A stretch of DNA of 64,000 bases from an uncultured Actinomycetota bacterium (GCA_963770565.1 CAVYQE010000001.1:992001-1056000), one strand, 5' to 3'. Counted from the first letter of the stretch, positions 34,448 to 54,862 are shown. Numbers and translations are program-made. The notes: generated by a model not told the origin, from the letters alone.

Positions 34448-36763
34448 TCACGAAGGGGGCACTGCGTGCGACCGGGCCGGCTCGAGTCGCAGCACGATCG
34501 CCTTCGACGTCGGCGTACCGCTCCGGTCCGCCTGGCTGTCGAGCGGGACGAGCGAGTTGGCCTCCGGGAAGTACGCGGCGGCGCAACCACGAGCGGTGGG
34601 GAACGCGATGACCCGGAAGTGCTCCGCGATCCGGTCGACGCCGTCGCTCCACTCCGAGTGCAGGTCGACCACGTCGCCGTCGGCGAACCCGACCTCAGCC
34701 AGGTCGTCCGGGTTCACGAACACCACCCGCCGACCCTTGCGGACGCCGCGGTAGCGGTCATCGAGCCCGTAGATCGTGGTGTTGAACTGGTCGTGCGAGC
34801 GCACAGTCTGCAACAGCAGCCGGCCGGGTGGGCAGCGCGGCCACTCCAGCGGGTTAACCGTGATCTCGGCCCGCCCGCTCTTGGTCGGCCAGCGGCGCTC
34901 GTCCCTCGGCGGATGCGGAAGCACGAAGCCCTCAGGCTCGCGGACCCGCCGGTTGTAGTCCTCGCAACCGGGGACCACCCTGGCGATCCGGTCGCGGATC
35001 GCGTCGTAGTCGGCCTCGAAGTCCTTCCACGGCACCGGGCTGGTGTCGCCGAACATCCGCTGGGCCAGCTGGCAGACGATCGCCACCTCCGACCGCAGCG
35101 ACGGCGACGCCGGCTCCAGCTTGCCGTTCGAGGCGTGCACGCGGCAGACCGTGTCCTCGACGCTGACGAACTGCTCGCGGCCGGCCTGCCGGTCGACCTC
35201 GGTCCGGCCGAGTGCCGGCAGGATCAGTGCTTCCTCACCGGTGATGCCGTGCGAGTGGTTGAGCTTGGTGGATACCTGCACGGTCAGCCGGGTACGGCGA
35301 AACGCCGCCTCGGTCGCGACTGTGTCGGAGTTGGCGGCGGCGAAGTTGCCGCCCATCGCCATGAAGACTTTGATGGCGCCGTCGCGCATGTGTCGCACCG
35401 AGTCGACGACGTCGGTGCCGTACTCGCGCGGGAAGCTCATCCCGAACTCGCCTTCGAGCGCGTCGATGAACGCAGCGGTCGGGCGCTCCCAGATACCCAT
35501 CGTGCGGTCGCCCTGCACGTTGCTGTGCCCGCGGATCGGCGAGACGCCTGCACCCGGCTTGCCGATGTTGCCCCGCAGCAGGAGCAGGTTGACGATCTCC
35601 TGGATCGTCACGACGGCGTGCTTGTGCTGGGTCAGGCCCATCGCCCAGCAGATGATGACGCGGTCGGCACTGATGTAGCGCTGCGCGAGCTCGTCGATCT
35701 CCGCCGCCCTGAGGCCGGTTGCCTCCAGTACGTCGGCTTCGGAGAGCTGGCCGAGATGGGCCCGGAACTCCGGCAGGCCGCGGGTGTGCTCGGCGAGGAA
35801 GGCGTGGTCGAGGATCGATCCGGGCGCGCGGTCGTCGGCGTCGATCACCCGCCGGCTGACGGCCTGCATCAAGGCCATGTCGCCGCCGAGCCGGAGCTGG
35901 AGGAACTGGTCGGCGATCTGGGTGCCTCGGCCCAGCACCCCAGACGGTCGCTGCGGGTTCTTGAACCGGATCAGACCCGGCTCCGGCAGCGGGTTGACGG
36001 CGACGATCGACGTACCCCCGCGCTTGGCTTCTTCAAGCGCGGTCAGCATGCGCGGATGGTTCGTCCCGGGGTTCTGGCCCATGATGATGATCAGGTCCGA
36101 CTTGGCGAAATCTTCGTAGCTGACGCTCGACTTCCCGACTCCGATGCTCTCGCCGAGGGCGACGCCGGTGCTCTCGTGGCACATGTTGGAGCAGTCCGGA
36201 AGGTTGTTCGTGCCGAACGCCCGCACGAACAGCTGGTAGACGAAGGCGGCTTCGTTGCTGGTGCGGCCCGAGGTGTAGAAGGCCGCCTGGTTGGGGGAGT
36301 CAAGCGCCTTGAGATGGTGCGCGATCACATCGAACGCGTCGTCCCACGACACCGGCTGGTAGTGATCGCTGCCGGCCGGCTTGTAGACCGGCTCGACCAG
36401 GCGGCCCTGCTGGCCCAGCCAGTACTCGCTGCGCTGAGCGAGGTCGCTGACCGGATGCTCGGCCCAGAACCCGGGCTCCACCCGGAGTACGTCGGCTTCC
36501 CACGCGGTCGCCTTGGCGCCGTTCTCGCAGAACTCGATGGTGTGGCGGTGCGGCGGGTCCGGCCACGCGCAGGAGGTGCAGTCGAACCCGTCCTCCTGGT
36601 TGACCCGGCGCAGCGTCTTGCTGCTTCGCCATGCGCCCATCTCTCGTTCCGCGTGCTGAAGGGCATGGATGACACCGGGTACGCCGGCCGCCCACTGCGG
36701 CGGCTTGCTGACCTTGAGGTCGTCGTCTGTGACGTCCTCGCGGATCCGCTTGCGGCGTGGCAT
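34448..36763 (-). CDS. FdhF/YdeP-family molybdopterin oxidoreductase
   Basis: GFDCTSCAWPD, FCENGAKA, FYTSGRTSNE, NNLPDCSNMCHE and RSHDQFNTTIYG motifs. Confidence 0.93.
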   Translation of the reverse strand: MPRRKRIREDVTDDDLKVSKPPQWAAGVPGVIHALQHAEREMGAWRSSKTLRRVNQEDGFDCTSCAWPDPPHRHTIEFCENGAKATAWEADVLRVEPGFWAEHPVSDLAQRSEYWLGQQGRLVEPVYKPAGSDHYQPVSWDDAFDVIAHHLKALDSPNQAAFYTSGRTSNEAAFVYQLFVRAFGTNNLPDCSNMCHESTGVALGESIGVGKSSVSYEDFAKSDLIIIMGQNPGTNHPRMLTALEEAKRGGTSIVAVNPLPEPGLIRFKNPQRPSGVLGRGTQIADQFLQLRLGGDMALMQAVSRRVIDADDRAPGSILDHAFLAEHTRGLPEFRAHLGQLSEADVLEATGLRAAEIDELAQRYISADRVIICWAMGLTQHKHAVVTIQEIVNLLLLRGNIGKPGAGVSPIRGHSNVQGDRTMGIWERPTAAFIDALEGEFGMSFPREYGTDVVDSVRHMRDGAIKVFMAMGGNFAAANSDTVATEAAFRRTRLTVQVSTKLNHSHGITGEEALILPALGRTEVDRQAGREQFVSVEDTVCRVHASNGKLEPASPSLRSEVAIVCQLAQRMFGDTSPVPWKDFEADYDAIRDRIARVVPGCEDYNRRVREPEGFVLPHPPRDERRWPTKSGRAEITVNPLEWPRCPPGRLLLQTVRSHDQFNTTIYGLDDRYRGVRKGRRVVFVNPDDLAEVGFADGDVVDLHSEWSDGVDRIAEHFRVIAFPTARGCAAAYFPEANSLVPLDSQADRSGTPTSKAIVLRLEPARSHAVPPS

Positions 36764-36777
36764 CGGGTCGACGCGCC

Positions 36778-37644
36778 TCAGCCGGTCACGGTCGAGATGA
36801 CCGGTCGGTCAGCAGAGTTGTGCACCCGGCCGGATCCGGCATAGATCACCATCGACGGACCTCGCAGGAAGCCGATCAGGGTCAGGCCGACCCGATCGGC
36901 CAGGTCGACGGCGAGTGCTGACGGAGCGGAAACCGCTGCCATTGCAGGGATACCGGCGACCGCTGCCTTCTGGGCGAGCTCGAACGATGCGCGGCCGGAC
37001 ACCAACAACAAGGTGGCGCGAAGCGGAAGTCGCCCCTCGCGCAATGCCCAGCCGACCACCTTGTCGACCGCGTTGTGCCGGCCGACGTCCTCGCGCAGGA
37101 CCAGCAGTTGCCCTGACGCGACGTCGAAGAGCGCGGCCGCATGCAAGCCGCCGGTCCGCTCGAAGACCTGCTGTGCCGCGCGCAGCTGATCGGGCAGGGT
37201 GGCGATCCACTCGGCGTCGAGGTTGGTCTCGTCGGCGCGCAGGTCGTACGGCGAGGTGACCTCTACGCCGTCGATCGTCGCCTTGCCGCACAGCCCGCAC
37301 GCACTGGTCGTCACCAACGCGCGTTGGAGCGACGTCGGCAGCTCGTCGATGTGCGTCGCGAGGTGGGCGTCCAGGACGTTATAGGTGTTGTGTCCCTCGT
37401 CGTCGACGCCCGCGCAGTAGCGCATCTCGCGGAGGTCTTCGCGATGCCGGATCACGCCTTCGCCGACCAGGAATCCGGCCAGCAGGTCCATGTCGTCGCC
37501 GGGCGTGCGCATCGTCACGGCGATCGCGCGGCCGCCGACCCGCATCTCGAGCGGTTCCTCGGCGACCAGTGTGTCCGGCGCGGTGACGGTCGGTTGGCCG
37601 ACGGTCACCCGTGACACCCGCCTGCTCACCGTTACCCGTCCCAC
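36778..37644 (-). CDS. fdhD: Formate dehydrogenase accessory sulfurtransferase
   Basis: EEPLE, MRTPG, CGLCG, TGGLHAA and REDVGRHNAVDK motifs. Confidence 0.93.
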   Translation of the reverse strand: MGRVTVSRRVSRVTVGQPTVTAPDTLVAEEPLEMRVGGRAIAVTMRTPGDDMDLLAGFLVGEGVIRHREDLREMRYCAGVDDEGHNTYNVLDAHLATHIDELPTSLQRALVTTSACGLCGKATIDGVEVTSPYDLRADETNLDAEWIATLPDQLRAAQQVFERTGGLHAAALFDVASGQLLVLREDVGRHNAVDKVVGWALREGRLPLRATLLLVSGRASFELAQKAAVAGIPAMAAVSAPSALAVDLADRVGLTLIGFLRGPSMVIYAGSGRVHNSADRPVISTVTG

Positions 37645-37698
37645 GCCCCAAGTGTGCCCCAGAGGCCGTTGGGTATGCCCGCCCGTCCGGCTCGTGGG

Positions 37699-38130
37699 CT
37701 AGCTGATCGGCTCGCAGACGACCACCGGGATCTCGCGATCGGTCTTGCGTTGGTAGCCGGCGTAGTTGGAGTGCGCCGAGGTGATCTGTGGCCACAGCTC
37801 GGCTCGCTCGTCAGAGTCGGCGATGTGGGCCCGCATCCTGCGGGTCGAACCCTCCATCGTGACCTCGACCTCGGGCGTCTTGCGCAGGTTCTGACACCAC
37901 GAAGGTTCGCGATCGTCGCCGCCGTTCGATGCGACCAGCATCACCTTGTCACCGAGCACCAGCGGCGAGGTCAGCATCGTCGGCCGAGGCTTGCCGCTGG
38001 TCCGACCGGTGGTGGTCAGCTGGAGTACCGGCATCCCCAACGCGCGACCACCGATCCGGCCTTTGCTGGCGTTGAACAGGCTCCGGTGCATGAGGGTGAC
38101 GCTGCGGGACAGCTCGTCTTTGACGTTCAT
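37699..38130 (-). CDS. Deazaflavin (F420)-dependent nitroreductase family protein
   Basis: LTTTGRTSGKPR, VASNGG...P.W..NL and YQRKTDREIPVV motifs. Confidence 0.9.
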   Translation of the reverse strand: MNVKDELSRSVTLMHRSLFNASKGRIGGRALGMPVLQLTTTGRTSGKPRPTMLTSPLVLGDKVMLVASNGGDDREPSWCQNLRKTPEVEVTMEGSTRRMRAHIADSDERAELWPQITSAHSNYAGYQRKTDREIPVVVCEPIS

Positions 38131-38236
38131 GGATCCATGATCGCGCACCGATTCGGCCGGTTGCCACTGGTGCGCGTTGTCCACGGGGACGGCGTTGGTT
38201 TCCGTTGTCCACAAAGGGCTTCTTCGTGCTGCCAGA

Positions 38237-38285
38237 TGTCGGCGGTCGGCAGTAGATTCTGTTTGGGAGTCGAACATACGTTCGA
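38237..38285 (+). promoter_or_regulatory. PafBC (RecA-NDp) type promoter plus LexA SOS box
   Basis: TGTCGG-N10-TAGATT at 38237-38258; TCGAACATACGTTCGA at 38270-38285. Confidence 0.75.
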
Positions 38286-38336
38286 TCAGCGGGCGCGTCG
38301 AGAGTCGCGTCCAAGTGCAGGGATGAGGTGAGGTCG

Positions 38337-39497
38337 ATGTCGGAGTTGCTCTCCGTGCTCGACTCCCTTGCCGTCGATGACGTGCACGCGATGGCGGAGC
38401 CGACGCTCCTTGCCCGGACCGAGACGCTGCTCGCCGCGCGCAACAAGCTCGACGCCGAGATCGCTCGCTCTCTGCAGGCGCTCGACGTGCGCGATGTGAC
38501 GGTGCACGAGTGCGGCCGCACGACCGGTTCGTGGCTGGTCGAGGAGCAGCGGCTCTCCCGGTTGGAGGCAACCCGCCGGATGGGCGTTGCGCGACTGCTG
38601 CCCTATCACCCGGAGCTGACTGCGGGCCTGGCGACCGGTGACGTGTCGCACGAGCACGCCCGGCTGATCCTGGATTGCCTGCGCCGGTTGCCGAGCGAGT
38701 GGGCGCGAGTGGCCGAGCCCGAGCTGATCGCTGCCGCGGCTGAGGTCGATCCCACCTCGCTCGGCCAGTTGTGCCGGGAGCTCCGACTGCGTTCGGGCGC
38801 CGATGAGGATGCCGAGGCCGTCGCCCAGCGGATGTTCCGCGATCGGTGGCTACGACTGTCGACGACCTTTCAGGGCATGGTGCATCTCGAGGGAATGTTG
38901 GATCCCGAGTCCGCTGCGATCGTGACCACGGCGATCACGCCGTTGCTCGCCACCGTCGGCGCTGAGGACCACCGCGACTCGGGTCAGCGTCGAGCCGATG
39001 CCCTCGTCGAGCTCGCCCGGATGGCGCTGGCGGGCGGCAAGCTGCCGGACCACGGCGGGGACCGTCCGCAGATTGTGGTGAGCATCCCGTGGGGGGAGCT
39101 GCGCGACGGCGTTTCGGCCGGGCAGCTGCCGTCCGCAACGCTGAATGGCACGCCGCTCACGCCGGCGATCGCCCGGCGGATCGCATGTGACGCGGGGTTC
39201 ATCCCGGCAGTGCTCGGCGGGCCGTCCGAGATCCTCGACCTCGGCCGTTCGCAGCGCAGTTTCAGCCGCGCACAACGCCGCGCCGCCGCCCTTCGCGACA
39301 AGGGCTGCGTGTTTCCGCAATGCAGGGTCGGCCTCGACCGCTGCCAGTTGCATCACCTGGACTTTTGGGAGTACGGCGGCAAGACGAATCTGCGCGACAG
39401 CGCTTACGTGTGCACGTTCCACCATTGGCTCGTCCACCACACCAGTTGGGTCATCATCCGCAACGCCCAGGGCCGGATCGAGGTCCGACGAACGTGA
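38337..39497 (+). CDS. DUF222 (13E12 family) HNH endonuclease-domain protein
   Basis: QRRADALVEL, RRIACDA, RDKGCVFPQC...HH...W..GG.T...CTFHH motifs. Confidence 0.9.
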   Translation: MSELLSVLDSLAVDDVHAMAEPTLLARTETLLAARNKLDAEIARSLQALDVRDVTVHECGRTTGSWLVEEQRLSRLEATRRMGVARLLPYHPELTAGLATGDVSHEHARLILDCLRRLPSEWARVAEPELIAAAAEVDPTSLGQLCRELRLRSGADEDAEAVAQRMFRDRWLRLSTTFQGMVHLEGMLDPESAAIVTTAITPLLATVGAEDHRDSGQRRADALVELARMALAGGKLPDHGGDRPQIVVSIPWGELRDGVSAGQLPSATLNGTPLTPAIARRIACDAGFIPAVLGGPSEILDLGRSQRSFSRAQRRAAALRDKGCVFPQCRVGLDRCQLHHLDFWEYGGKTNLRDSAYVCTFHHWLVHHTSWVIIRNAQGRIEVRRT

Positions 39498-39512
39498 TTC
39501 CTCGGTCGTGCG

Positions 39513-40673
39513 CTATTGCAGCTGTTCGAGCACGGAGCGACCCACTTCGGTCAAGGTCGCCTCCGGTGCGAGCGGGTGGGTGATGCCGGCGCGGACGTCG
39601 CGCAGCGCCTGCTCGTAGGGCTGGCGCCGGAAGTACGACATGCTGCCGAGCATCTCCATCGCGGTTTCGACCATGGCAATCGAGCTCAGCACGATCTGCC
39701 GCTTGGCCAGCATCGTGGCGCGAAAATGCACTTCGGTGAGGAGCGAGTCATCCGTCGTCCGGCGCAGCAGGCCTTCGAGGGCCCACCACGCCAGCCGCGA
39801 TTCCTGACTGAGCGCGCCGACGTGCCGATAGGTGATCGGGTCGTCGGGGTGCCGACCCTTGGTGACGTCGGTGAGCGCGCGTTCCCGGATGCCGTCGCCG
39901 GCGCCGAGATAGACCGCGGCGATCACCGTGAGCGCGATCAACAATCCGGGCGCCCGATGCGTGGTGCGATGCCGATCGGCGGGCTTGATCTCGCTCTCGA
40001 GTTCGTGCGTGCCGGTGATGTCGTCCTCGGGGACGAAGACGTCCTTGATCCCGATCCCGTTGCTCCCCGAGCCGCGCATGCCCATCGCATCCCAGGTATC
40101 GAGCACCTCGACGCCGGGTGCACTCATCGTGATCAGGACCGACGCAGCGACCGGCCCGCGCTGGTCGTCGATCAGGATCGGGGTCGCCAGGACGTCGGCG
40201 CCGGGGCAGCCGCTCGCCAGGCCCTTGCGACCGTTGAGTCGTAGCCCGCCGTCGACCCGGCTCGCGGTCACTCCGGGGTTGAGCGGGTCCGACGTACCGC
40301 TCGAGCACAGGATCAGGCCATCCGCGATCCGGCGTAGTGCGGACTCGACACCGGTATCGCCGCGGCGCCAGCGGCGCGCCATCGACAACACGGTGTGCTG
40401 GTGCATCGAGATTGCGAGGGAGGTATTCACGCACCCGGCGGCCATCGCGGCTTGGGCCCGGCACACGGTCGAGAGATCGTGGCCCCCGCCGCCGAGCTCC
40501 CGCGGAACGGCAACCGTGCCGTACCCGAGTTCGCGGATCGCCTCGTAGCCTTCCGCGACGAAGCTGGCTTCGCGATCGTGGTCGCCGGCGAACGGTTCGG
40601 CATGGCGGCCGATCTCGCGGGCGATCGCGATGACCTCGGACGGATCGAGCGACCCGTCGCCGGCGTCGGTCAT
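39513..40673 (-). CDS. Acyl-CoA dehydrogenase-fold flavoenzyme, probably monooxygenase-like (YdbM/DszC/KijD3 type)
   Basis: VPRELGGGG, LNGRK..ASG, WDAMGMRGSGS and C-terminal RDVRAGITHP motifs; ATGA-coupled to the DUF692 gene. Confidence 0.85.
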   Translation of the reverse strand: MTDAGDGSLDPSEVIAIAREIGRHAEPFAGDHDREASFVAEGYEAIRELGYGTVAVPRELGGGGHDLSTVCRAQAAMAAGCVNTSLAISMHQHTVLSMARRWRRGDTGVESALRRIADGLILCSSGTSDPLNPGVTASRVDGGLRLNGRKGLASGCPGADVLATPILIDDQRGPVAASVLITMSAPGVEVLDTWDAMGMRGSGSNGIGIKDVFVPEDDITGTHELESEIKPADRHRTTHRAPGLLIALTVIAAVYLGAGDGIRERALTDVTKGRHPDDPITYRHVGALSQESRLAWWALEGLLRRTTDDSLLTEVHFRATMLAKRQIVLSSIAMVETAMEMLGSMSYFRRQPYEQALRDVRAGITHPLAPEATLTEVGRSVLEQLQ

Positions 40674-41521
40674 GACCGCGGCGCCGTCAGCTCGCGGGTC
40701 GGGATCGGGTCGGCGGCGGCCAGGATGCTGCGCACCGTGGCAAGGTCGGCGCGGACCTGATCCGCCGCGCCCTCCCAGTCGGTGTCGCGTTCGATGAAGA
40801 TGATGTCGGGGTTGGCTCGCGTCAACACACGTTCGAGCAACCTGAACACCTCCTCGTGCACCGGGCGCGAGTGCGAGTCGATCCATTCCTCGCCATGCCG
40901 GGTCCCGCCGGCCAGGTGGATGTAGCGGATCCGCTCAGCGGGCAGGGAGTCGATGAATGCCTCGGCATCGAGCGGGCGGTTCTGCGAGTTGATCCAGATG
41001 TTGGTCAGGTCGAGCAGGCAGTCCCACTCCGGCGAGGCATCGAGAAGTTCGCGGTAGAACTCTTCCGGCGTGTACGTCGAGCCGCTGATCATCGTCGTGG
41101 TCGCGAGGTTCTCCAGTCGCACTCGTCGGCCGGTCGCCGCCGAGATCCGGGCGATGTTCGCGACGGCGCACTCGAGCAGCTCGTCGTCGAAGCGATTCGG
41201 CGCGAGGTGACCGAGCGCGTGGCCGCCGGCGGCGGTGAATGCCAGGTGGTCGCTGTAGGCAACTGCGCCGACCGCGTCGGCGAGCCGCGCGATCCGGCCG
41301 AGGTAAGCCTCGGTCGGTCCGCTCACCGAAGCGACGTTGCCGCAAAGCCCATGGATCGCGACCGGGATGCCGGCCACGCCGAGCTCACGCAACTCCCACG
41401 ATCGGCAGAAGCCGGAGTCGGCGAAATAACGGTCCGCGACGAGTTCCACCACGTCGACCGCGCAACCGTCCGGTCCGGAGTAGAGCTCCGGCAGCTCGGG
41501 TCGGTAGCCCGCCCCCACCAT
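40670..41521 (-). CDS. DUF692 family multinuclear non-heme iron oxidase (MNIO; MbnB/TglH/ChrH/HvfB family)
   Basis: G.GYRPEL, VELVADRY, HG, SDHL, LEN, LLDLTN, YIHLAGG, IDSH and IERD iron-ligand motifs; alternative GTG start at 41533. Confidence 0.92.
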   Translation of the reverse strand: MVGAGYRPELPELYSGPDGCAVDVVELVADRYFADSGFCRSWELRELGVAGIPVAIHGLCGNVASVSGPTEAYLGRIARLADAVGAVAYSDHLAFTAAGGHALGHLAPNRFDDELLECAVANIARISAATGRRVRLENLATTTMISGSTYTPEEFYRELLDASPEWDCLLDLTNIWINSQNRPLDAEAFIDSLPAERIRYIHLAGGTRHGEEWIDSHSRPVHEEVFRLLERVLTRANPDIIFIERDTDWEGAADQVRADLATVRSILAAADPIPTRELTAPRS

Positions 41522-41523
41522 CG

Positions 41524-42327
41524 TCAGGCCCACTCGAGAACCCCCTGGGAATGCAGTCGTGCCAGCGTAACGATCGTGCGCTCCGGTTGATCGATGTCAA
41601 TGCAAAGCTCAGCGGCGGATTGCGGGCCGTGTTCGCGGAGGCGGGTCAGCGCGGTCGCGGCGGCGGGGAACAGGCGCAGGATCTTCGGGTCGCGGCGCTG
41701 GCCATCTTGGAAGAACAGCAGATCGCACGGATCGGGCGGAAGGTCGCGTAGCTCGGTCAGGGTGAAGGAGCGAAGCTGACGCAGATCCCAGTCAAAATGC
41801 TGCACCTCGATGCTCGGGTGCAGCCGCAGCAGCCGACCGCGATCGAAGGTGTCTGGAGCCGCCTGCGGATTGCTCCGATCGGGTAGAAGTTCCAACGGTG
41901 CCGGCTGCCAGAAAGCCCGGCAGACGGCGAGCTCGAAGATCGCGAGTTCGGCGATCGCCGGGCCGCATTCGCTCGTCGGGGCCGAGTCGACCGCGAGCCG
42001 GACGAGTGCCGCGCCGAAGCCCAGCGGGTCGTCGGACAGCGCTTCGGTCTGCGGTGTGTCGGCGGCGTAGTCCGCCAGCAAAGCCTCCGCCGACGCTCCG
42101 AGCAGCACAAATGTGCGCGGAAGCGCGCGGCGCAGGATCCCCTGACGCTTGTTGACGAAGGAGGCGGTCAGTGCGGCGAGGTCCGGGACCATGGCGACGA
42201 ACGTGTCGAGGTCGGCGCCCGTCAAGCCGAGTCGGCCGGCATATGCCGGGGGATCGGCAAGGCATTCGGACCGGTCACGACGGCTCGTGATGACGGCCCC
42301 CATCGCCGATTCAAGATCGTGGCGCAC
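41524..42327 (-). CDS. Putative MNIO partner protein (DUF2063/HvfC-like with C-terminal winged-helix RRE-like end)
   Basis: L...LP.T..LLG, AELAIFELA, LRLHPS and terminal L..L...GVL pattern; directly upstream of DUF692. Confidence 0.7.
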   Translation of the reverse strand: MRHDLESAMGAVITSRRDRSECLADPPAYAGRLGLTGADLDTFVAMVPDLAALTASFVNKRQGILRRALPRTFVLLGASAEALLADYAADTPQTEALSDDPLGFGAALVRLAVDSAPTSECGPAIAELAIFELAVCRAFWQPAPLELLPDRSNPQAAPDTFDRGRLLRLHPSIEVQHFDWDLRQLRSFTLTELRDLPPDPCDLLFFQDGQRRDPKILRLFPAAATALTRLREHGPQSAAELCIDIDQPERTIVTLARLHSQGVLEWA

Positions 42328-42414
42328 CTAGCCATTGTGCCGGTCTGGCGTTACCGTGAGCGTGGAAGAGCCTTTGGGTTGGACGGTTGATCGGCTGTCC
42401 TGGGGGAGGCCAGT

Positions 42415-43293
42415 ATGGGCGAGCACGAACTTGCACAGGGTTACTTGCGTGGGGAGATCTCTCGTCGGACCATGATCCGGCGTCTCGTCGGTGGCGGTCT
42501 TTCGCTGGTCGCAGCGTCCGCCTTCGTCGACGAGCTGACGGCGGCGGATGCGGCACCGTCCGCGCACGGCGTGCCGTCGATCACCTCGATCACCCCGTCG
42601 TCGGGACCGCCGTCCGGCGGGACCAAGGTGGTCATCCGCGGCAAGCACTTCCTCGGTACGACGGCGGTGCACTTCGGCTCGCACAAGGCGAAGATCCATT
42701 CGGTGGCGTCGGCCTCGATCCACGTGACGTCGCCGAAGGGCTCGACCGGCTCGGTCGACATCACCGTCACGAACAGTCACGGCACGTCGAAGAAGAGCAA
42801 GCACCATCACTTCACCTACGTCCACAACCTCGCGCCGACGGTGACCAAGGTCGTGCCGGCCTCGGGTCCATCGGCCGGCGGCACCGCGGTAGTCGTTTCC
42901 GGGCGCAACCTCGGCAAGGCCTCGGCGGTTCACTTCGGATCTCGTCGCGGCACGATCACCAAGGTCGGCGCGACGTCGATCCACGTGAAGTCGCCGATCG
43001 GCTCCGGCGTGGTCGACGTCACTGTGACCACCTCGCACGGCACCTCCCACAAGCACGCGGCTGACCACTACCACTTCCTGGTTGCCCCGACACCGACACC
43101 GACGCCGACTCCCACTCCCACGCCGACGCCGACTCCCACTCCGACTCCGACTCCGACGCCGACGCCGACGCCCACGCCCACGCCCACCTCGGGGAGCAGT
43201 TGCAACTCCGGTTGCAGCACGAGTGGCAGTTGTAACTCCGGTTGCGGCGTCGGGTGCAACTCGAGCGGTTGCTTCCAGTGCGGTTCAGGTTGA
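42415..43293 (+). CDS. Tat-signal protein with two IPT/TIG domains, a (PT)17 stalk and a Cys-rich C-terminal tail; candidate MNIO substrate
   Basis: ISRRTMIRR..h-region..ADA; two P.IT.I.P.SGP..GGT.V.I.G..F/L IPT repeats; tail SGSSCNSGCSTSGSCNSGCGVGCNSSGCFQCGSG; GGGAGG RBS. Confidence 0.85.
   Translation: MGEHELAQGYLRGEISRRTMIRRLVGGGLSLVAASAFVDELTAADAAPSAHGVPSITSITPSSGPPSGGTKVVIRGKHFLGTTAVHFGSHKAKIHSVASASIHVTSPKGSTGSVDITVTNSHGTSKKSKHHHFTYVHNLAPTVTKVVPASGPSAGGTAVVVSGRNLGKASAVHFGSRRGTITKVGATSIHVKSPIGSGVVDVTVTTSHGTSHKHAADHYHFLVAPTPTPTPTPTPTPTPTPTPTPTPTPTPTPTPTPTSGSSCNSGCSTSGSCNSGCGVGCNSSGCFQCGSG
43087..43188 (+). repeat. Pro-Thr hexanucleotide coding repeat, (PT)17
   Basis: CCS-ACN units repeated 17 times. 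Confidence 0.9.
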
Positions 43294-43339
43294 GGATCCG
43301 GGTTCCGGAAGTGACGTCCGTCACTGGTGACGGGTTGCG

Positions 43340-44695
43340 GTGACCGAAGGCGGCACCGAGGCCCCTGAGGGGGACGCCGCCGGGCTGCGGTTGGACGAGC
43401 CGGTGGTCGTGCTGACCGGCTCGCGGCACGGTTCGACGTTGGTGCGCTTGATCCTCGACGCCCACCCCTCGCTGGCCTGTCCGGCCGAGACCAACATCCT
43501 CTCGCTGTCGGCGCGGTTGGCGCGGGCCGCCCGGCTACTCGCAAGTTCCGGCGATCCCGCCCTCGGCCCTCCGCTCGACATCGCCCGGGAGACGATCGAC
43601 GCGTTGTTTGCCGACCATCTGCGCCGGGTCGGCAAGCAACGCTGGTGCGACAAGTCGATCGACTCGTCGCGGAACGCCGCTGCGTTTCTCGAGTGGTATC
43701 CGAAGACGAAGTTCCTCTGCCTGTATCGGCACTGCCTCGACGTGATCGATTCAGGCATCGAGGTGACGCCCTGGGGGCTGTCGAGCTTCGGGTTCCGTCC
43801 GTACGGGCAGCGCCACCCGGGCAACGACGTCGCCGCGATCGCCGAGTACTGGTTGACGATGACGACCCGGACGCTCGAGTTCGAGCAGGCTCACCCCGAG
43901 GTCTGCCATCGGGTCTACTACGAGGACCTGGTCGGGGCGCCCGAGGACGTTGCCGCCGAGATCTTCGAGTTCCTCGGCGAGCCCGTCGTACCCGGCATCA
44001 CCGCGACCTGCTTCACCACGGTGGGTGCTCCGGTCGGGCCGGGCGATCCGAAGGTGTGGGCGACGTCGGCCATCTCGGCCAGGTCGATCGGGCGCGGCGC
44101 CCGGGTGCCGCTCGAGCTCATTCCGGTCACCCTTCGCGACCCGGTGTCCGAGCTGCTGGTCGAGCTGGGGTATCCCAAGCTGGGCGACCGGTACGACCAG
44201 GTCGGCCGAGCGCCTTCGAACGGCGCCGCCCCGGCCACTCCAGGCGACGACATCGACCAGCGAATCGGGGCGCACCTGCGCGAAGCCCTCTCGATGCTTC
44301 CCCCGATCAGTGGTTCATGGCGGGCCGCGCTCGACGGCAAGCCGGTGGCGATCGTGGGATCGCCCTGGCCGGATGCGTCGTCGCATTGGCGGGTCGACCT
44401 GGCCGGGCGGAGCTGCGTGCGCTCGAGCGGTGATCCGCTGGACGGCACCGCGTGGGCGGTCCTCGCCGAACCTGACGCGCTGATCGACGTGATGAACGGT
44501 CGGCTCAACCTAGCGATCGCCATGCGGCGGGGCCTGATCCGGATCGAGCGCGACCATTCGACTGCGCTGTCGACGGACGTCAGCCAGCTGGTGCCGCTGG
44601 CCAGGGTCGGGCGCGACGATGTCGTCCGGCTGCAGGTCACCGCGCGGCTGCTCGGCGCCCCGTCGGCCGATCCGGACGAATCATGGGAGCAGTGA
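43340..44695 (+). CDS. Sulfotransferase (TPST/Sulfotransfer_3-like) with C-terminal SCP2-like extension
   Basis: 5'-PSB loop GSRHGSTLVRLILDAHP, WCDKS, 3'-PB YRHCLDVIDS and YEDLV.APE motifs. Confidence 0.85.
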   Translation: MTEGGTEAPEGDAAGLRLDEPVVVLTGSRHGSTLVRLILDAHPSLACPAETNILSLSARLARAARLLASSGDPALGPPLDIARETIDALFADHLRRVGKQRWCDKSIDSSRNAAAFLEWYPKTKFLCLYRHCLDVIDSGIEVTPWGLSSFGFRPYGQRHPGNDVAAIAEYWLTMTTRTLEFEQAHPEVCHRVYYEDLVGAPEDVAAEIFEFLGEPVVPGITATCFTTVGAPVGPGDPKVWATSAISARSIGRGARVPLELIPVTLRDPVSELLVELGYPKLGDRYDQVGRAPSNGAAPATPGDDIDQRIGAHLREALSMLPPISGSWRAALDGKPVAIVGSPWPDASSHWRVDLAGRSCVRSSGDPLDGTAWAVLAEPDALIDVMNGRLNLAIAMRRGLIRIERDHSTALSTDVSQLVPLARVGRDDVVRLQVTARLLGAPSADPDESWEQ

Positions 44696-45780
44696 TGTCT
44701 CCGCAGCCCGAGGACGCGCTGCCCCACGAGAAAGCGCCGCCTCACGAGGAAGCGCTGCCCCACGACGAGCCGGCCGAAGACGAGGTCAGCCCGGAGTGGT
44801 GCCACTGGGCGGCCGTGTCGCTGCTCTCGGGAATGCCCCTGGCCGAGGTGATCTCGACGATGGCCGCGCAGGGCGTGCCCGAGCCGGATGCCGCGCGGGT
44901 GTGCGCGGCGGCGTTCATGGATCCGATGTTCGAGGCCGCGCAGACAATTGCACAGCAACACCGCAAGCTCGTCTCGGTGCTGGCGATGCGATCGACGATG
45001 CTGGACCTGGCCGAGAACGGGCGCGCGATCGAGCGCCGGTCCGGACTGAGCCGCAAGGAGTTCCTCGACGACTACTACGCCCGCAACCGGCCGGTCGTCC
45101 TCGAGGACGTCTGTGACACCTGGCCGGCGGTCGCGCAGTGGACCCCTGAGTACCTGGCCGAGGTGATCGGCTCCGCCGAGGTCGAGGTGATGTCCGACCG
45201 CGATGCCGACGACGACTACGAGATCAACGCGGACGCGCACAAGCAGTACATGCCCTTCGACGACTATGTTGCCCGGGTCCTCGCCGCTCAGTCGACGAAC
45301 GATCTCTATCTGGTGGCGAACAACCACCTGTTGGAGTCCGGCGTGGCCGAGCCGCTCTGGCGAGACATCGCGCTCGACGAGCGATACCTGGATCGCGGCG
45401 ATGCCGCGAGCCGGACCTACCTGTGGTTCGGCGCGGGTGGCACGATCACCAAGCTCCACCACGACGTGATGAACGTGATGTTCCACCAGGTCATGGGCTG
45501 GAAGCAGTTCACCTTGATCTCGCCGCTGGAGACCCCGCACCTCTATAACAACGCGTCGGTCTACAGCGATGTCGACCCGAAGTCGCCCGACTACACCCGG
45601 TTCCCGGCGTACGCGAATGCGCACCCGATCCATGTCACGGTCGGCCCGGGTGAGGCCTTGTTCGTGCCGGTCGGGTGGTGGCACCACGTCGAGGCGCTCG
45701 AGATGAGCATCAGCGTCTCGTCCACGAGCTTCGCCTTCCCGAACTCGATCGAGTGGTTCCATCCGGAGCGGCTGGGCTGA
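44695..45780 (+). CDS. JmjC/Cupin_8 Fe(II)/2-oxoglutarate hydroxylase
   Basis: NRPVVL, WPA..W, WFG..GT.T.LHHD, GWKQF and PVGWWHHVEAL (HxD...H) motifs; TGATG overlap with the sulfotransferase. Confidence 0.9.
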   Translation: MSPQPEDALPHEKAPPHEEALPHDEPAEDEVSPEWCHWAAVSLLSGMPLAEVISTMAAQGVPEPDAARVCAAAFMDPMFEAAQTIAQQHRKLVSVLAMRSTMLDLAENGRAIERRSGLSRKEFLDDYYARNRPVVLEDVCDTWPAVAQWTPEYLAEVIGSAEVEVMSDRDADDDYEINADAHKQYMPFDDYVARVLAAQSTNDLYLVANNHLLESGVAEPLWRDIALDERYLDRGDAASRTYLWFGAGGTITKLHHDVMNVMFHQVMGWKQFTLISPLETPHLYNNASVYSDVDPKSPDYTRFPAYANAHPIHVTVGPGEALFVPVGWWHHVEALEMSISVSSTSFAFPNSIEWFHPERLG

Positions 45781-45816
45781 GCCTCGCGGTCCGGTCGGCG
45801 GCGATACCTTCAGGAC

Positions 45817-47043
45817 ATGACCGAGACCTCGGTGACGTTCCAGCCGTTCAGCGCGGCGTTCACCGATGACCCGTATCCGCACTACGCGGAGCTCCGGGCC
45901 CAGGTGCCGGTGGAGCAGCATGCGCTCGGCTTCTGGGCGCTGTGGCGGCATGCGGACGTGACCGAGGTGCTGCGGGCCCGGCTGTCGGTCGAGGAGGGCA
46001 ATGTCACCAGCTTCGGGCCGATGCGAGCGGTGTACGACGAGATCTACCGGGAGGCCAACACCGGCCGGCGCGGCGAGGGCATGTCGATGCTCGACCGCGA
46101 TCCGCCGGACCACACCCGGCTTCGCCGGCTCGTGTCGCGCGCGTTCACGCCACGCCGGATCGAGACCCTCATCCCGGTCGTCCAGTCCCTCGTCGACGAC
46201 GCGCTGGACCGGATCGCCGACGCCGGCGAAGTCGACCTCATCGAGGCGCTGGCGTTTCCCCTGCCGTTCGCGGTGATCTCGACGATGCTCGGGATGCCGG
46301 AGACCGATGTCACGCGGTTGCGCGAGCTGTCTCACCTGATCGTCAAGTCGCTCGAACCGGTGCCGGACGAGCAGACCATCCGCGAGATCATCCTGGCCGA
46401 CAAGGAGATGGCCGACCGTACCGCCGAGGCGATCGAGTGGAAGCGCGATCATCCCGCCGACGACCTGCTGACCGCGCTGATCAACGCCGAAGACGGCGGT
46501 GATGTGCTCAGCGACGAGGAGCTGATCGGTCAGGTGGTGCTGCTCTACGTCGCGGGTCACGAGACGACGGTCAACCTGATCGGCAATGGCACGCTGGCGC
46601 TGCTCAACGACCCCGCGCAGGCCGCGCTCTGGCGGGAGCGACCCGATCTCGACGACAACGCGGTCGAGGAGCTGCTGCGCTACGACAGTCCGGTGCAGCT
46701 GACCCGGCGGATCACCCTCGAGGACTACGAGGTCGACGGCCACGTCATCCCGAAGGGGAGTTTCGTCATGGCCAGCCTCGGCTCGGCCAACCGCGACGGG
46801 GCGCAGTTCGGGCCGGACGCCGACCGGGTCAGGCTCGATCGCGCGAACGCGAAGCAGCATGCGTCGTTCGGCGGCGGCGTCCACCACTGTCTCGGCGCCG
46901 CGCTGGCCCGGACCGAGGGCCGGATCGCGCTGTCGTCGCTGGTCCGCCGGTTCCCGTCGCTCGCCCTCGCCGGCGAGCCGGCCCGCAACGGGCGGATCAA
47001 CCTGCGCGGCCTCACCGCGCTCCCGGTCAGCGTCGAGTCATGA
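45817..47043 (+). CDS. Cytochrome P450
   Basis: DPPDHTRLR, AGHETT, EELLR and FGGGVHHCLG motifs. Confidence 0.95.
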   Translation: MTETSVTFQPFSAAFTDDPYPHYAELRAQVPVEQHALGFWALWRHADVTEVLRARLSVEEGNVTSFGPMRAVYDEIYREANTGRRGEGMSMLDRDPPDHTRLRRLVSRAFTPRRIETLIPVVQSLVDDALDRIADAGEVDLIEALAFPLPFAVISTMLGMPETDVTRLRELSHLIVKSLEPVPDEQTIREIILADKEMADRTAEAIEWKRDHPADDLLTALINAEDGGDVLSDEELIGQVVLLYVAGHETTVNLIGNGTLALLNDPAQAALWRERPDLDDNAVEELLRYDSPVQLTRRITLEDYEVDGHVIPKGSFVMASLGSANRDGAQFGPDADRVRLDRANAKQHASFGGGVHHCLGAALARTEGRIALSSLVRRFPSLALAGEPARNGRINLRGLTALPVSVES

Positions 47044-47597
47044 CCACCGAGTCGCTGAAGGGCAAACTGCTCATCGCCGCGCCGGGGATGCAGGAGCCGA
47101 CCTTTTCGCGCACCGTGATCAGCGTGCTCGAGCACACCGACGACGGCGCACTGGGTGTCGTGATCAACCGCCCCGGTGACGCCTCGCTGATCGACATCGT
47201 GCCGCCGGTGGCTGAGCTCGCGAGCGAGCCGGCGGTGCTGTTCGCCGGCGGCCCGGTCGAACCGCAAGCCGCGATCGCCCTCGGTTTCGTCACCGGGACC
47301 GCAGCCGGCGACGCCTGCCGGCCGGTCGTTCCGCCATTGGTGACGGTGGACCTGGACTCCGATCCGGCCATCCTTGCCGCCTCGCTCCGAGAGCTCCGCG
47401 TCTTCTCCGGGTACGCCGGTTGGTCGGCCGGCCAGCTCGAGGGCGAGATCGCGGTCGGCGCCTGGTATGTCGTCGAGGCGTTGCCGCTCGACGCGTTCGA
47501 CGCGGAGCCGGGCCGGCTGTGGGCGGCGGTCCTTCGCCGGCAGCCGTGGCCGTTGTGTGCGGTCGCGACCTGTCCCATCGATCCGACCATGAACTGA
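47040..47597 (+). CDS. YqgE/AlgH (DUF179) family protein
   Basis: GKLLIA, F.RTVI, GVVINRP, GGPV and GYAGW..GQL motifs. Confidence 0.92.
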   Translation: MTTESLKGKLLIAAPGMQEPTFSRTVISVLEHTDDGALGVVINRPGDASLIDIVPPVAELASEPAVLFAGGPVEPQAAIALGFVTGTAAGDACRPVVPPLVTVDLDSDPAILAASLRELRVFSGYAGWSAGQLEGEIAVGAWYVVEALPLDAFDAEPGRLWAAVLRRQPWPLCAVATCPIDPTMN

Positions 47598-47609
47598 GAG
47601 GCACCTGCG

Positions 47610-48524
47610 GTGGTTGCGCCGAGCGGCGAGCAGTTCGAGATCACGTCCGGTGAGCAGCGCGCGACCGTGGTCGAGGTCGGCGGCGGTCTCCGTACCTACA
47701 CGGTCGGTGACCGCGCGGTCCTCGACGGGTACGACGAGGCCGCGACCTGCGACGGAGCGCGCTGCCAGACCCTCGTGCCGTGGCCGAACCGCGTGCATGA
47801 CGGGAAGTGGAACTGGCGCGGCGCGGACTTGCAGCTCGCGCTGACCGAACCCGAGCAGCACAACGCGATTCACGGCCTGGTGCGTTGGATGCCATGGTCG
47901 GTGATCGAGCGCGCTGCCTCGTCGATCACGGTCGGCTGCACCTCACATCCGCAACCGGGCTATCCGTGGACGATCGAGGTTCGCAACGCGTGGTCGCTCG
48001 GCGCGGACGGTGTTGCGGTCGAAACCACGATCGTCAACCGCAGCGAGTCGATCGCACCGGTCGCTGCCGGGTTTCATCCTTACGTGCGGGTCGGAACCTC
48101 GACGATCGACGACGCCGTGCTGACCGTGCCCGGCGACACCCGGATCCTGACCGGCGAGCAGCAGATCCCGACCGGCCGCGAGCCGGTTGCCGGCACGGCA
48201 TACGACTTCCGGTCACCGCGCCGGATCGGCGACCTCGCGATCGACCACACCTATACCGACCTGCACCGCGACGACGACGGCCTAGCTCGCCTTCGGCTGG
48301 CCGCACCCGACCGAAGCGAGCAAGTGACGGTCTGGGTCGACGGGGCGTACCCGTACCTCGAGCTGTTCACCGGTGACGCGCTTCCAGATCCATCGCGCCG
48401 ACGCCAGGGGCTGGGAGTGGAGCCGATGTCGGTCCCGCCGAACGCGCTGGTCACTGGCGAGTCGGTGGTCGCACTCGAGCCAGGCGGGTCTTGGCGGGGA
48501 CATTGGGGAATCAACCCCTTCTAA
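47610..48524 (+). CDS. Aldose 1-epimerase family protein
   Basis: PWPNRV, NAIHGL, GFHPY and EPMS motifs. Confidence 0.9.
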   Translation: MVAPSGEQFEITSGEQRATVVEVGGGLRTYTVGDRAVLDGYDEAATCDGARCQTLVPWPNRVHDGKWNWRGADLQLALTEPEQHNAIHGLVRWMPWSVIERAASSITVGCTSHPQPGYPWTIEVRNAWSLGADGVAVETTIVNRSESIAPVAAGFHPYVRVGTSTIDDAVLTVPGDTRILTGEQQIPTGREPVAGTAYDFRSPRRIGDLAIDHTYTDLHRDDDGLARLRLAAPDRSEQVTVWVDGAYPYLELFTGDALPDPSRRRQGLGVEPMSVPPNALVTGESVVALEPGGSWRGHWGINPF

Positions 48525-54407: not shown

Positions 54408-54454
54408 CCCACACGCCACTGCCCTGCTCGCGCCGGACGTCGTACCCTCGGGCC

Positions 54455-54862
54455 GTGCTCCGGATCAGCCAGCAGCTGTACGACGAGATCGTCGCGCATG
54501 CCCGCCGCGACCATCCCGACGAGGCCTGCGGGGTGCTCGCGGGACCGGTCGGCAGCGACCGCCCGGCCCGCTTCGTCCCGATGCTCAACGCCGAGCGGTC
54601 GCCGACCTTCTACCGGTTCGACTCGATGGAGCAGCTGCAGGTGTGGAAGGAGATGGACTCGCGCGACGAGGAGCCGATCGTGATCTACCACTCGCACACC
54701 GCCACCGAAGCCCGCCCGTCGCGTACCGACGTCACCCTGGCCAGCGAGCCGGGTGCGCACTACGTATTGGTGTCGACCCGCGAGCCCGACCAGACCGAGT
54801 TCCGCAGCTTCCGGATCCTCGCGGGGCAGGTCACCGAGGAGCCGGTGGAGATCATCGGTTAG
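54455..54862 (+). CDS. mec: JAMM/MPN CysO-cysteine peptidase
   Basis: HPDEACG and YHSHT....PS.TD motifs; upstream of cysO-cysM. Confidence 0.9.
   Translation: MLRISQQLYDEIVAHARRDHPDEACGVLAGPVGSDRPARFVPMLNAERSPTFYRFDSMEQLQVWKEMDSRDEEPIVIYHSHTATEARPSRTDVTLASEPGAHYVLVSTREPDQTEFRSFRILAGQVTEEPVEIIG

Follow-up and report, generated by a model that had tools for sequence, protein, structure and literature searches.

An MNIO enzyme and a Cys-tailed two-domain protein predicted to be exported share a six-gene island of an uncultured soil actinobacterium

Gene content and boundaries of the island

The locus described here lies in a 64,000-nucleotide stretch of DNA (the window) from an uncultured soil actinobacterium, in which an island of six genes pairs an MNIO (DUF692) with a Cys-tailed, putatively exported two-domain protein. 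Three of the genes are on the minus strand: a partner protein (41524–42327; 267 aa, or 259 aa from an alternative start at M9), the MNIO (40670–41533; 287 aa) and an ACAD-fold flavoenzyme (39513–40673; 386 aa), where the partner stop and the MNIO start overlap by 10 nt, and the MNIO stop and the ACAD start by 4 nt. The other three are on the plus strand and encode an IPT/TIG protein (42415–43293; 292 aa), a sulfotransferase (43340–44695; 451 aa) and a JmjC/Cupin_8 2-oxoglutarate oxygenase (44683–45780; 365 aa). The 87-bp intergenic region between the two arms (42328–42414) is presumed to carry both promoters, along with the TIG ribosome-binding site. Gene positions, left-hand overlaps and divergent gap are all as originally predicted, judged by Pfam matches and coordinates. 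Third-position GC (GC3) is 0.78–0.92 across the seven genes examined, i.e. these six and a flanking P450, and the reading frames thus look real.

The edges of the island were set by blastn of a region of the sister species G003 (C19:5000-10600) against the window, together with an alignment of the junctions. Positions 1–3254 of the G003 region correspond to window positions 36274–39498 at 87.8% identity, and positions 3299–5601 to window positions 45779–48081 at 92.3% identity; the 6.28-kb segment in between (39499–45778) is missing from the sister species and holds exactly the six system genes, its right end being the JmjC stop codon. Long terminal repeats were searched for at the island termini and none were found. 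A Pfam scan of the island revealed no protease gene and no exporter gene, and a search within it for copper or other metal genes gave no hits, the latter counting against the explanation offered below.

A cytochrome P450 (45817–47043, plus strand; Pfam E 1.2e-28) had originally been counted as part of the rightward run, but the comparison with the sister species places it beyond the island edge, as a resident chromosomal gene. Its orthologues in two genomes of the same genus, with 96% (G003) and 77% (G002) amino acid identity, adjoin AlgH, and neither genome has a match to the partner profile, or to the MNIO profile at E≤1e-20. As the P450 is found beside AlgH in genomes that lack the island, we rule it out as a member of the system; the P450 near the cluster in genome G017, described below, is only 30% identical and lies on the opposite strand.

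The MNIO and its partner protein

The MNIO, present as a single copy in the genome, matches PF05114 over model positions 2–262 of 263 (E 1.8e-54; 185.2 bits, cut-off 25), and scores below the cut-offs of the NCBIfam models for BufB, HvfB, ApyH, MbnB and ChrH. The motifs IHGL, SDHL, LEN, DLTNIW, HLAGG, DSHS and IERD are present and are conserved in full-length orthologues; the last five align with solved chains (3bww up to HLAGG, TglH from LEN on), and we take the His, Asp, Glu and Asn residues of these TIM-barrel motifs to be Fe ligands. With our profile A3, the MNIOs of the window and of G017 score 547 and 535 bits, respectively, and the next best protein in 401 genomes of the class 125 bits; by sequence, the two form a distinct MNIO clade.

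The partner has no match in Pfam or NCBIfam, PF09836 included. Its AF2 model (pLDDT 80.3) predicts a helical N-terminal domain and a C-terminal β/α RRE-like domain, and in Foldseek searches the best matches of the model are 8hi7_A (E 7.7e-5), 8hci_A (E 2.7e-4) and NGO1945 (3dee; E 1.6e-3), followed by weaker ones to PqqD, the PbtF RRE and MbnC (E 0.17–1.5). The first two are chains of the TglHI holoenzyme, presumably TglI, and are only 12–17% identical to the partner in sequence. The PPDPC motif is invariant among partner orthologues, and the orthologue from G017 gives a weak NGO1945_C match (E 0.0029). By its predicted fold, the partner is a DUF2063-like helical domain joined to an RRE-type domain, as in TglI and NGO1945. 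Of the domain families anticipated for the locus, PF05114 and PF01833 were thus recovered in the MNIO and the TIG protein, but PF09836 was not recovered in the partner, which is assigned by fold only.

The IPT/TIG protein and its Cys-rich tail

The IPT/TIG protein (PF01833, two stretches, E 2.8e-26) consists of a twin-arginine leader (approximately residues 1–45), TIG domains at residues 54–135 and ~141–222, a (PT)17 linker (residues 225–258; 43087–43188, plus strand) whose coding sequence is an imperfect tandem repeat of 6/12 nt, and a 34-residue tail (residues 259–292; 43189–43290, plus strand) with the sequence SGSSCNSGCSTSGSCNSGCGVGCNSSGCFQCGSG. The tail, which we propose as the MNIO core, has 7 Cys and otherwise Ser, Gly and Asn; all seven Cys of the protein are located there, and this is the segment originally noted as the sole Cys-rich peptide of the locus. 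The TIG domains also match the NCBIfam model CoaZ_rpt_PGGG (49.7 bits, cut-off 30); such "choice-of-anchor Z" repeats are, as the name implies, found on proteins that differ in their C-terminal sorting signals.

In the leader, the motif ISRRTMIRRL and the hydrophobic stretch that follows are kept in all five orthologues aligned; the Tat consensus is S/T-R-R-x-F-L-K. Of the original prediction of Tat export, the twin-arginine motif stands and a TatC gene is present in the genome, but none of the TAT-signal models in Pfam and NCBIfam matches the leader, so that we call it Tat-like by motif only.

The orthologue from G017 has a (TP) linker and a tail with 14 Cys. Two further proteins, each with a leader and two TIG domains, were seen without their loci: in P0145, a short T/P-rich linker is accompanied by 14 Cys spaced as C-x2-C, and P0158, which has a PT linker, contains no Cys at all and may be frameshifted or truly tail-less. 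In a broader search for homologues of the IPT/TIG protein (E≤1e-10; 289 matches), none of the 120 matches listed has more than 2 Cys within the last 60 residues. Tail patterns vary between lineages (C-x2-5-C, GC/GGC repeats, C-x2-C), and such a variable tail on a conserved scaffold, with a conserved leader and conserved enzymes, is typical of a core peptide. Contigs from an RNA library match the TIG gene exactly at 42661–42853 and 42916–43063, another matches the sulfotransferase gene at 43655–43814, and the JmjC gene is also matched exactly; we regard this as a weak hint of transcription.

The flavoenzyme, sulfotransferase and JmjC oxygenase

The ACAD-fold enzyme has the three Pfam domains Acyl-CoA_dh_N, _M and _2. 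Its NCBIfam matches, to SfnB, HsaA and DszC, are partial and far under the cut-offs, and its nearest PDB entries are 5gj7/5z8t, KijD3 (4kcf/3m9v), DnmZ, a nitrososynthase, HsaA, Rv3094c and DszC; among proteins of the acyl-CoA dehydrogenase fold, it is closest to the oxygenating ones. The sulfotransferase carries a Sulfotransfer_3 domain at residues 21–216 (E 2.9e-22) and a C-terminal half with no assigned domain, and its nearest structures are the CurM sulfotransferase (3.3e-9) and protein-tyrosine sulfotransferases (5e-9 to 3e-4). The JmjC oxygenase (Cupin_8, E 1.1e-46) is of the protein-hydroxylase type, with JMJD5 (7e-32), TYW5, JMJD7 and FIH as nearest structures. JMJD5-like enzymes hydroxylate Arg, and Arg is absent from both the window and the G017 tail, an observation that counts against the pathway we propose below.

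Conservation in other lineages

The original prediction expected DUF692 homologues of this kind to have Cys-tailed IPT/TIG proteins as neighbors, and the neighborhoods agree as far as the contigs reach: in each of the three lineages recovered with enough flanking sequence, a homologous partner-MNIO-ACAD trio adjoins a gene for an IPT/TIG protein with this leader, and a Cys tail is present in both lineages in which the C-terminus lies on the contig (7 Cys in the window, 14 in G017). The lineages are the window with L006, L007 with L008, and G017 (L004, L005 and L009); the contigs of L007 and L008 stop short of the TIG C-terminus, and this lineage is hence outside the tail count. The divergent arrangement recurs in L006, L007 and L008, with gaps of 87, 183 and 176 bp, respectively. 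In G017, all six functions of the island are found in a single operon with overlapping stop and start codons, in which the JmjC (55% identical) and sulfotransferase genes lie between the ACAD and TIG genes, and TIG comes last; a Peptidase_A4 gene downstream, on the opposite strand, is not conserved in the window. Downstream of the MNIO gene, L004, L008 and L011 each have an ACAD orthologue (48–56% identity). The order partner-MNIO-ACAD within the trio departs from the precursor-MNIO-partner order described as usual by Antoine et al. 2025 (PMC12452194), which weighs against the pathway proposed below.

Proposed pathway and alternative explanations

As substrate of the MNIO and its partner, the IPT/TIG protein with its Cys tail is the best candidate; what supports this assignment is synteny, in 3 of 3 lineages, with tails at 2 of 2 visible C-termini and a 6.28-kb island as its frame. 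Since an iron enzyme whose usual targets are Cys residues of small peptides is here paired with a putatively exported, Cys-tailed protein, the MNIO probably modifies a whole protein. We suggest, with a probability of roughly one half for the explanation as a whole, that 39499–45778 is a horizontally mobile six-gene cassette for making a post-translationally modified exported protein, as follows. The MNIO and its TglI/NGO1945-like partner would form a cytoplasmic complex, as other MNIOs do, and oxidize the 7 Cys of the Gly/Ser/Cys tail, either all of them or only a part; judging by the enzymes of the methanobactin, oxazolin and bufferin pathways, this would yield groups of the oxazolone-thioamide or thiooxazole type. 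The translationally coupled ACAD-fold enzyme, akin to N- and S-oxygenating members of its fold, would carry out a later oxidation step; the JmjC oxygenase would hydroxylate a side chain and the sulfotransferase would O-sulfate a hydroxyl. The folded, modified protein would then leave the cell via Tat, using its twin-arginine leader, and outside the cell the modified tail would top a (PT)n stalk borne by two Ig-like domains. Its most likely role there would be that of a metal-binding (Cu) or redox-active module.

The alternative that survives best, although we consider it rather improbable, divides the cassette: the MNIO and its partner, probably with the ACAD enzyme, would modify the tail, and the JmjC oxygenase and sulfotransferase would have a different target (for instance a small molecule, a glycolipid or the Thr/Ser residues of the linker) and would not touch the product made by the MNIO. 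In the sister species G003, a JmjC homologue with 55% identity, as close to the window enzyme as that of G017 and fused to an aldo/keto reductase, is part of an NRPS cluster that includes a Stf0 sulfotransferase, an NRPS A-T-C module, an SDR, a methyltransferase and an EryCIII-like glycosyltransferase; there is no MNIO and no TIG on this 15-kb contig, which argues that a pair of JmjC and Stf0 enzymes can serve a small molecule. The contigs of L008 and L011, for their part, show only partner-MNIO-ACAD before they end. Against a division, the JmjC and sulfotransferase genes are present at both complete loci, the window island and the G017 operon. The sulfotransferases can be read either way: that of the window is CurM/TPST-like and that of G017 Stf0-type, with no detectable BLASTP homology between them (E 0.022), which speaks for a division, but the recruitment of two types to the same cassette also argues that the system needs sulfation.

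It is less probable still that the IPT/TIG protein is an accessory exported protein, with a role in binding, scaffolding or immunity, and that the real precursor is a small ORF or lies elsewhere. In many MNIO clusters the precursor is indeed short, unannotated and difficult to call (PMC12452194), and high-GC DNA is rich in overlapping ORFs. However, the gaps inside the cluster measure 15, 87, 46 and 36 bp; a single ORF of at least 20 aa touches the 87-bp gap, and it has no Cys, nor is there any other Cys-rich product in the island in any frame with gene-like GC3. This agrees with the earlier claim that no free-standing small precursor ORF is present, for the gaps within the cluster; in the 176–183-bp gaps of L007 and L008, the scan covered ORFs of 80 aa and more. 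Moreover, a Cys tail unrelated in sequence recurs on the neighboring TIG protein in a second genus, and the TIGR04222 proteins discussed below provide a precedent for the same type of tail.

We consider it very unlikely that the tail is left alone by the MNIO, serving simply as a thiol, a disulfide, a metal-binding terminus or a surface anchor, and that the enzymes make an unrelated sulfated or oxidized metabolite. The match to choice-of-anchor Z repeats would suit an anchor, but the tail lacks both the hydrophobic segment and the basic end that usually mark a sorting signal, none of the NCBIfam models for C-terminal sorting matches the protein, Pfam finds no NRPS, PKS or terpene backbone enzyme in the island, and, to our knowledge and according to PMC12452194, an MNIO with an RRE-type partner modifies peptides in every characterized case.

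Beyond the modified exported protein proposed above, we offer a broader reading as a tentative one, somewhat less probable than the pathway itself: the system may represent a new class of "protein-borne RiPP", in which a mobile cassette caps a Tat-exported Ig-like stalk with a multiply oxidized, hydroxylated and sulfated Cys-derived warhead. On this reading, both the MNIO clade and the partner family would be new, and the chemistry of the MNIO or the flavoenzyme on Cys-Gly/Ser repeats may be one not seen before. If it holds, MNIO pathways can decorate folded multi-domain proteins, and in more than one tailoring step.

Comparison with known MNIO systems

In methanobactin biosynthesis (MbnABC), an MNIO and its partner turn Cys into metal-binding oxazolone-thioamide groups. 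The substrate there is a small peptide, which undergoes cleavage and secretion, unlike the protein proposed here; the window MNIO scores 43 bits against the MbnB cut-off of 325, and MbnC appears in the fold search of the partner only at E above 1. TglHI, which acts on TglA (pearlin/3-thiaglutamate), provides the best structural matches of the partner model (8hi7, 8hci), and the window MNIO aligns to TglH across residues 129–251, but the sequence identity of the partners is low, as given above. TglH acts on the C-terminal Cys of a small leader-bearing peptide.

Bufferins (BufA/BufB/BufC, with DUF2282 or Buf_6/12Cys precursors; PMC11626156) share with the system proposed here an MNIO and a two-domain partner directed at Cys of an exported precursor that bears a signal peptide, and their role is Cu chelation according to PMC12452194. 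The window system differs from them in its multi-domain candidate substrate, in a leader that is Tat-like and not Sec, and in the absence of a DoxX gene from the island; its MNIO scores 148 bits with the BufB model (NF050167; cut-off 310), and neither a PF09836 (DUF2063) match in the partner nor a DUF2282 or Buf_6/12Cys precursor was found. In the HvfA/oxazolin-type systems (Buf_EGKCG; Haemophilus and others, with HvfB; PMC11252979), the MNIO, as proposed for the window, modifies a protein and not a short peptide, with precursors reaching 506 aa and up to 58 Cys (PMC12452194). Those proteins consist of EGKCG repeats throughout and form a β-helix, in contrast to the short tail on unrelated folded domains in the window, and the window MNIO scores 119 bits against the HvfB cut-off of 360.

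The original prediction that no multi-domain protein had been described as an MNIO substrate is now dated: Antoine et al. 2025 propose protein substrates, among them Actinomycetota TIGR04222 membrane proteins with C-terminal Ser/Gly/Cys tails and DUF2063-like partners, although modification of these tails is itself only a proposal (PMC12452194). We found Gly/Ser/Cys tails at 10 of 28 other actinobacterial MNIO loci, and all eight tested belong to TIGR04222 proteins. TIGR04222 itself has no match in the window's IPT/TIG protein (P0001; NCBIfam, E≤0.01) and none in the whole genome, in a search in which control genomes were likewise silent. The two systems have in common a large, non-peptide protein with an unstructured C-terminal Gly/Ser/Cys tail predicted to be extracytoplasmic, encoded next to the MNIO, and both have a partner of PME-type 2, DUF2063-like but lacking a Pfam signature. 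They differ in that the scaffold here is a soluble protein, in which a Tat-like leader is followed by a pair of IPT/TIG domains with a (PT)n stalk, and not a polytopic membrane protein; that the MNIO belongs to a separate clade (547 vs 125 bits with profile A3) and is preceded by the partner gene; and that an ACAD-fold flavoenzyme, a JmjC oxygenase and a sulfotransferase are added. We thus view the window system as a rare variant that would extend the recently proposed action of MNIOs on proteins.

Gene content and limits of the island

The original prediction proposed that an MNIO (DUF692) cluster in this high-GC stretch (~69%) modifies a Cys tail on an exported IPT/TIG protein, and Pfam and NCBIfam scans confirm, at the coordinates first given, the genes on which that proposal was built. 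On the minus strand lie the partner (41524-42327; 267 aa, no family match), the MNIO (40670-41533; PF05114, E 1.8e-54) and an acyl-CoA-dehydrogenase-fold (ACAD) flavoenzyme (39513-40673), the stop and start codons of which overlap; across an 87-bp gap, the plus strand carries the 292-aa IPT/TIG protein (42415-43293) with two IPT/TIG stretches, followed by a Sulfotransfer_3 protein, a Cupin_8/JmjC protein and a P450. The absence of a separate small precursor is borne out as well, since the intergenic gaps of only 15, 87, 46 and 36 bp leave no room for one. The window's MNIO is the sole MNIO in the genome.

The limits of the system are set by a sister species, G003, which shares 93% identity with the window in the flanking protein FdhD and 98% in AlgH. 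Its DNA aligns to window 36274-39498 and then resumes directly at 45779-48081; the window thus carries a 6.28-kb insertion relative to G003. This insertion starts just past the stop of a DUF222 gene, ends at the stop of the JmjC gene, and contains exactly the genes for ACAD, MNIO, partner, TIG protein, sulfotransferase and JmjC protein; no terminal repeats or integrase marking its ends were found. The same six functions make up an operon in G017, a genome of another genus, and we consider this the strongest argument that the six genes would work together. The P450, originally counted as part of the system, is instead a resident gene: its G003 orthologue adjoins AlgH and is 96% identical, that of G002, a genome of the same genus, is 77% identical, and neither the partner profile nor the MNIO profile found a match in G003 or G002. 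A P450 also occurs near the G017 cluster, on the other strand and with only 30% identity.

Of the two DUF222 genes in the window (8290-9834 and 38328-39497), the second stops 1 nt short of the island's left edge and is also present in the sister species that lacks the island. In G002, FdhD and the P450 are separated by ~5.9 kb of DNA that bears no relation to the island (L052, G002:C26:10800-20300), so that this slot is variable within the genus. Elsewhere, window 9866-28363 holds three universal stress proteins, two nitroreductase-family proteins, a GAF histidine kinase with a LuxR-type response regulator, two CBS-pair proteins, a pyridoxamine-oxidase-like protein and a GNAT-CoA-ligase-type acetyltransferase, a gene set of the dormancy or hypoxia type; DUF2017, Prok-JAB, ThiS and a PLP-enzyme fragment form a run at 53814-56144 that looks like a sulfur-carrier (CysO-type) cysteine synthesis cluster.

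Expression of the island genes is weakly indicated. Contigs of one soil RNA library agree exactly with parts of the TIG, sulfotransferase, JmjC and P450 genes, with DNA carry-over possible; the same library has no contigs on the MNIO or partner genes and a single 32-nt piece with two mismatches on the ACAD gene, a gap in cover that counts neither for nor against expression of these three.

Conservation of the MNIO/partner pair and its TIG neighbour

Members of the partner family are rare. Among 5.8 billion proteins, a word-indexed search (E<=0.001) found six, including the window's own, and the partner profile matched 2/38 genomes of the GTDB order and 2/401 sampled genomes of the class, the window's genome being counted in both. 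Pattern scans returned 17 matches in species genomes, with one locus confirmed, and 143 in metagenome contigs, with six confirmed.

Loci with the partner family sort into three lineages. The first comprises the window and L006, where the partner is 80% identical and a divergent TIG gene is followed by partner and MNIO up to the contig end. The second (L007, L008 and L011) has a partner ~39% identical to that of the window; L007 and L008 each have a divergent gene whose product bears the same leader and three TIG domains, the contigs ending before the C-terminus of that product, and in L008 and L011 the MNIO is followed by an ACAD gene. The third is G017 (L004, L005, L009, L010), from another genus of the same family, with a partner 35-36% identical; here the genes form a co-directional run of APH-family kinase, partner, MNIO, ACAD, JmjC, Stf0 sulfotransferase and TIG protein, the last combining the same leader and two TIG domains with a (TP) linker and a Gly-Cys-repeat tail with 14 Cys. 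A TIG neighbour thus accompanies the MNIO/partner pair in 3/3 lineages, and a Cys tail is present in both of the two lineages (2/2) where the C-terminus lies on the contig. Two G017 genes are absent from the window's island: that for the APH/EcKL-family kinase, immediately ahead of the partner gene, and one for a Peptidase_A4, a short way downstream of the TIG gene and on the opposite strand (L004 9421-11388 and 17358-18116).

MNIO, partner and flavoenzyme

The MNIO falls under every named equivalog cut-off, the best being BufB with 148 of 310 bits; of its motifs, LEN, DLTNIW, HLAGG, DSHS and IERD can be aligned with 3bww and TglH, two solved chains, and its sequence contains all seven. With an MNIO profile (A3), the window's enzyme scores 547 bits and that of G017 535, the next best among 401 class genomes reaching 125. 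In the AF2 model of the partner (pLDDT 80.3), eight helices form the N-terminal part and a beta/alpha domain the C-terminal one. Foldseek matches this model best to 8hi7_A (E 7.7e-5) and 8hci_A (2.7e-4), chains of the TglHI holoenzyme that we take to be TglI, and to NGO1945 (1.6e-3), with weaker matches (E 0.17-1.5) to PqqD, the PbtF RRE and MbnC; the partner profile gave chance-level matches only (E>=0.14) against PDB sequences. The family first assigned to the partner therefore does not hold, as the scans gave no family match, while its role as a partner finds support in a fold like that of TglI and NGO1945. The partner fits the 'PME-type 2' description in the text of PMC12452194. The ACAD-fold protein is nearest to oxygenating members of the fold (KijD3, DnmZ, nitrososynthase, HsaA, Rv3094c and DszC), and within the order its only orthologue is in G017.

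Leader, linker and tail of the IPT/TIG protein

The IPT/TIG protein starts with a twin-arginine leader; residues 225-258 form a (PT)17 linker, and all seven Cys of the protein fall within the 34-residue tail. The two tail versions are very different, with 7 Cys among Ser and Asn in the window and 14 Cys in Gly-Cys repeats in G017. Such a tail is not usual for IPT/TIG proteins: among the 120 listed of 289 homologues at E<=1e-10, none has more than two Cys in the last 60 residues.

The leader (window 42415-42573; proteins P0133-P0282) consists of an acidic start, G-x-I-S-R-R-x-F/L-I-R-x-L-V, and a hydrophobic Ala-rich stretch. A word-indexed search with its 52 residues found no match, and an exhaustive search of 1.84 billion representatives with a 53-residue profile found 480 proteins at E<=1e-3, the 150 listed being mostly small, unrelated, and His-, Pro- or Lys-rich. 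Because it occurs on so many unrelated proteins, we reject the leader as an MNIO-specific recognition sequence; it appears to be a general export signal, a widespread module. Most of its bearers have 50-280 aa, with mature parts that are His-, Pro- or Lys-rich or ~100-aa beta domains. TIG domains occur in four of the 150 listed: P0145 has two, followed by 14 Cys in a C-x2-C array; P0158, which may be frameshifted, runs from a PT linker into an Arg-rich end that lacks Cys; and P0135 and P0138 are fragmentary. Scans of the leader with Pfam and NCBIfam matched no model, TAT-signal ones included, and TatC is encoded in the genome; we infer a Tat-like export route.

At the (PT)n-coding repeat (window 42953-43233), contigs of other organisms pile up to a depth of 10-13, against 1-4 elsewhere. 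One soil-run contig has a 74-nt 'goes back' joint inside the repeat, so the linker may vary in length or be misassembled.

JmjC protein and sulfotransferase

The roles of these two enzymes in the system are uncertain. The JmjC protein is nearest to JMJD5, TYW5, JMJD7 and FIH; the window's sulfotransferase is nearest to that of CurM and to protein-tyrosine sulfotransferases, that of G017 to Stf0, and BLASTP detects no homology between the two. A hydroxylase and sulfotransferase pair can also serve a small molecule. G003 encodes a JmjC protein that shares 55% identity with the window's, no less than the G017 orthologue does; it is joined to an aldo/keto reductase in one fusion protein, and no MNIO or TIG gene lies on its 15-kb contig. 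This contig (L044, G003:C58:1-15172) carries an NRPS A-T-C module, an SDR, a methyltransferase, an EryCIII-like glycosyltransferase and an Stf0 sulfotransferase. A lanthipeptide-like route of Ser sulfation or phosphorylation, elimination and Cys addition, considered in view of the many Ser in the window's tail and of the APH-family kinase gene upstream in G017, was dropped as a general mechanism since the G017 tail is almost without Ser. An RRE in the JmjC N-terminal part gained no support from the ESM Atlas, where the only lead from residues 30-125, at 0.82, was to Cupin_8 proteins. At its 5' end the JmjC gene has an 18-nt unit three times in tandem (window 44701-44765), coding for a repeated acidic, Pro/His-rich segment that precedes the conserved part, and JmjC orthologues align only from residue 29-43 on.

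Relation to known systems

Synteny, the island limits and precedent support MNIO and partner acting on the IPT/TIG Cys tail. Chemistry and function are inferred, metal binding being our best guess for the latter. The unusual cysteine chemistry known from MNIO enzymes is growing fast and includes copper-binding heterocycles; their action on real proteins, with the tailoring enzymes used, is still largely a bioinformatic proposal. The cassette is compact (six genes, 6.3 kb), a natural polymorphism of presence and absence defines where it begins and ends, and it is known in at least two versions differing strongly in the tail; it therefore offers a clean test of whether an MNIO acts on a folded, exported protein, what an ACAD-fold flavoenzyme does beside it, and whether hydroxylation and sulfation come on top.

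The novelty first claimed for a protein substrate needs correction, as Antoine et al. 2025 already state, in the text of PMC12452194, that MNIOs probably modify proteins, TIGR04222 membrane proteins with C-terminal Ser/Gly/Cys tails often adjoining MNIOs and DUF2063-like partners. The text and two supplements of that paper, the Pfam names of figure 5b aside, make no mention of IPT/TIG, sulfotransferase, cupin, acyl-CoA or P450. Our literature search found no MNIO paper also naming a sulfotransferase or TIG domain, and MNIO together with twin-arginine export or acyl-CoA dehydrogenase only in unrelated papers; TIGR04222 appeared in PMC12452194, its preprint and otherwise only an unrelated genome paper. 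A Gly/Ser/Cys-tailed neighbour is present at 10/28 other actinobacterial MNIO loci scanned, with TIGR04222 in 8/8 tested (the other two run off their locus); the window's own genome had no TIGR04222 match, nor did control genomes.

The window's system shares its tail logic with the TIGR04222-MNIO systems, but its scaffold is a soluble protein in which IPT/TIG domains are combined with a stalk and a Tat-like leader, its MNIO belongs to a separate clade with a separate partner family, and it has another gene order and three extra enzymes. We regard it as a rare variant within an emerging class, that of exported Cys-rich proteins probably modified by MNIOs.
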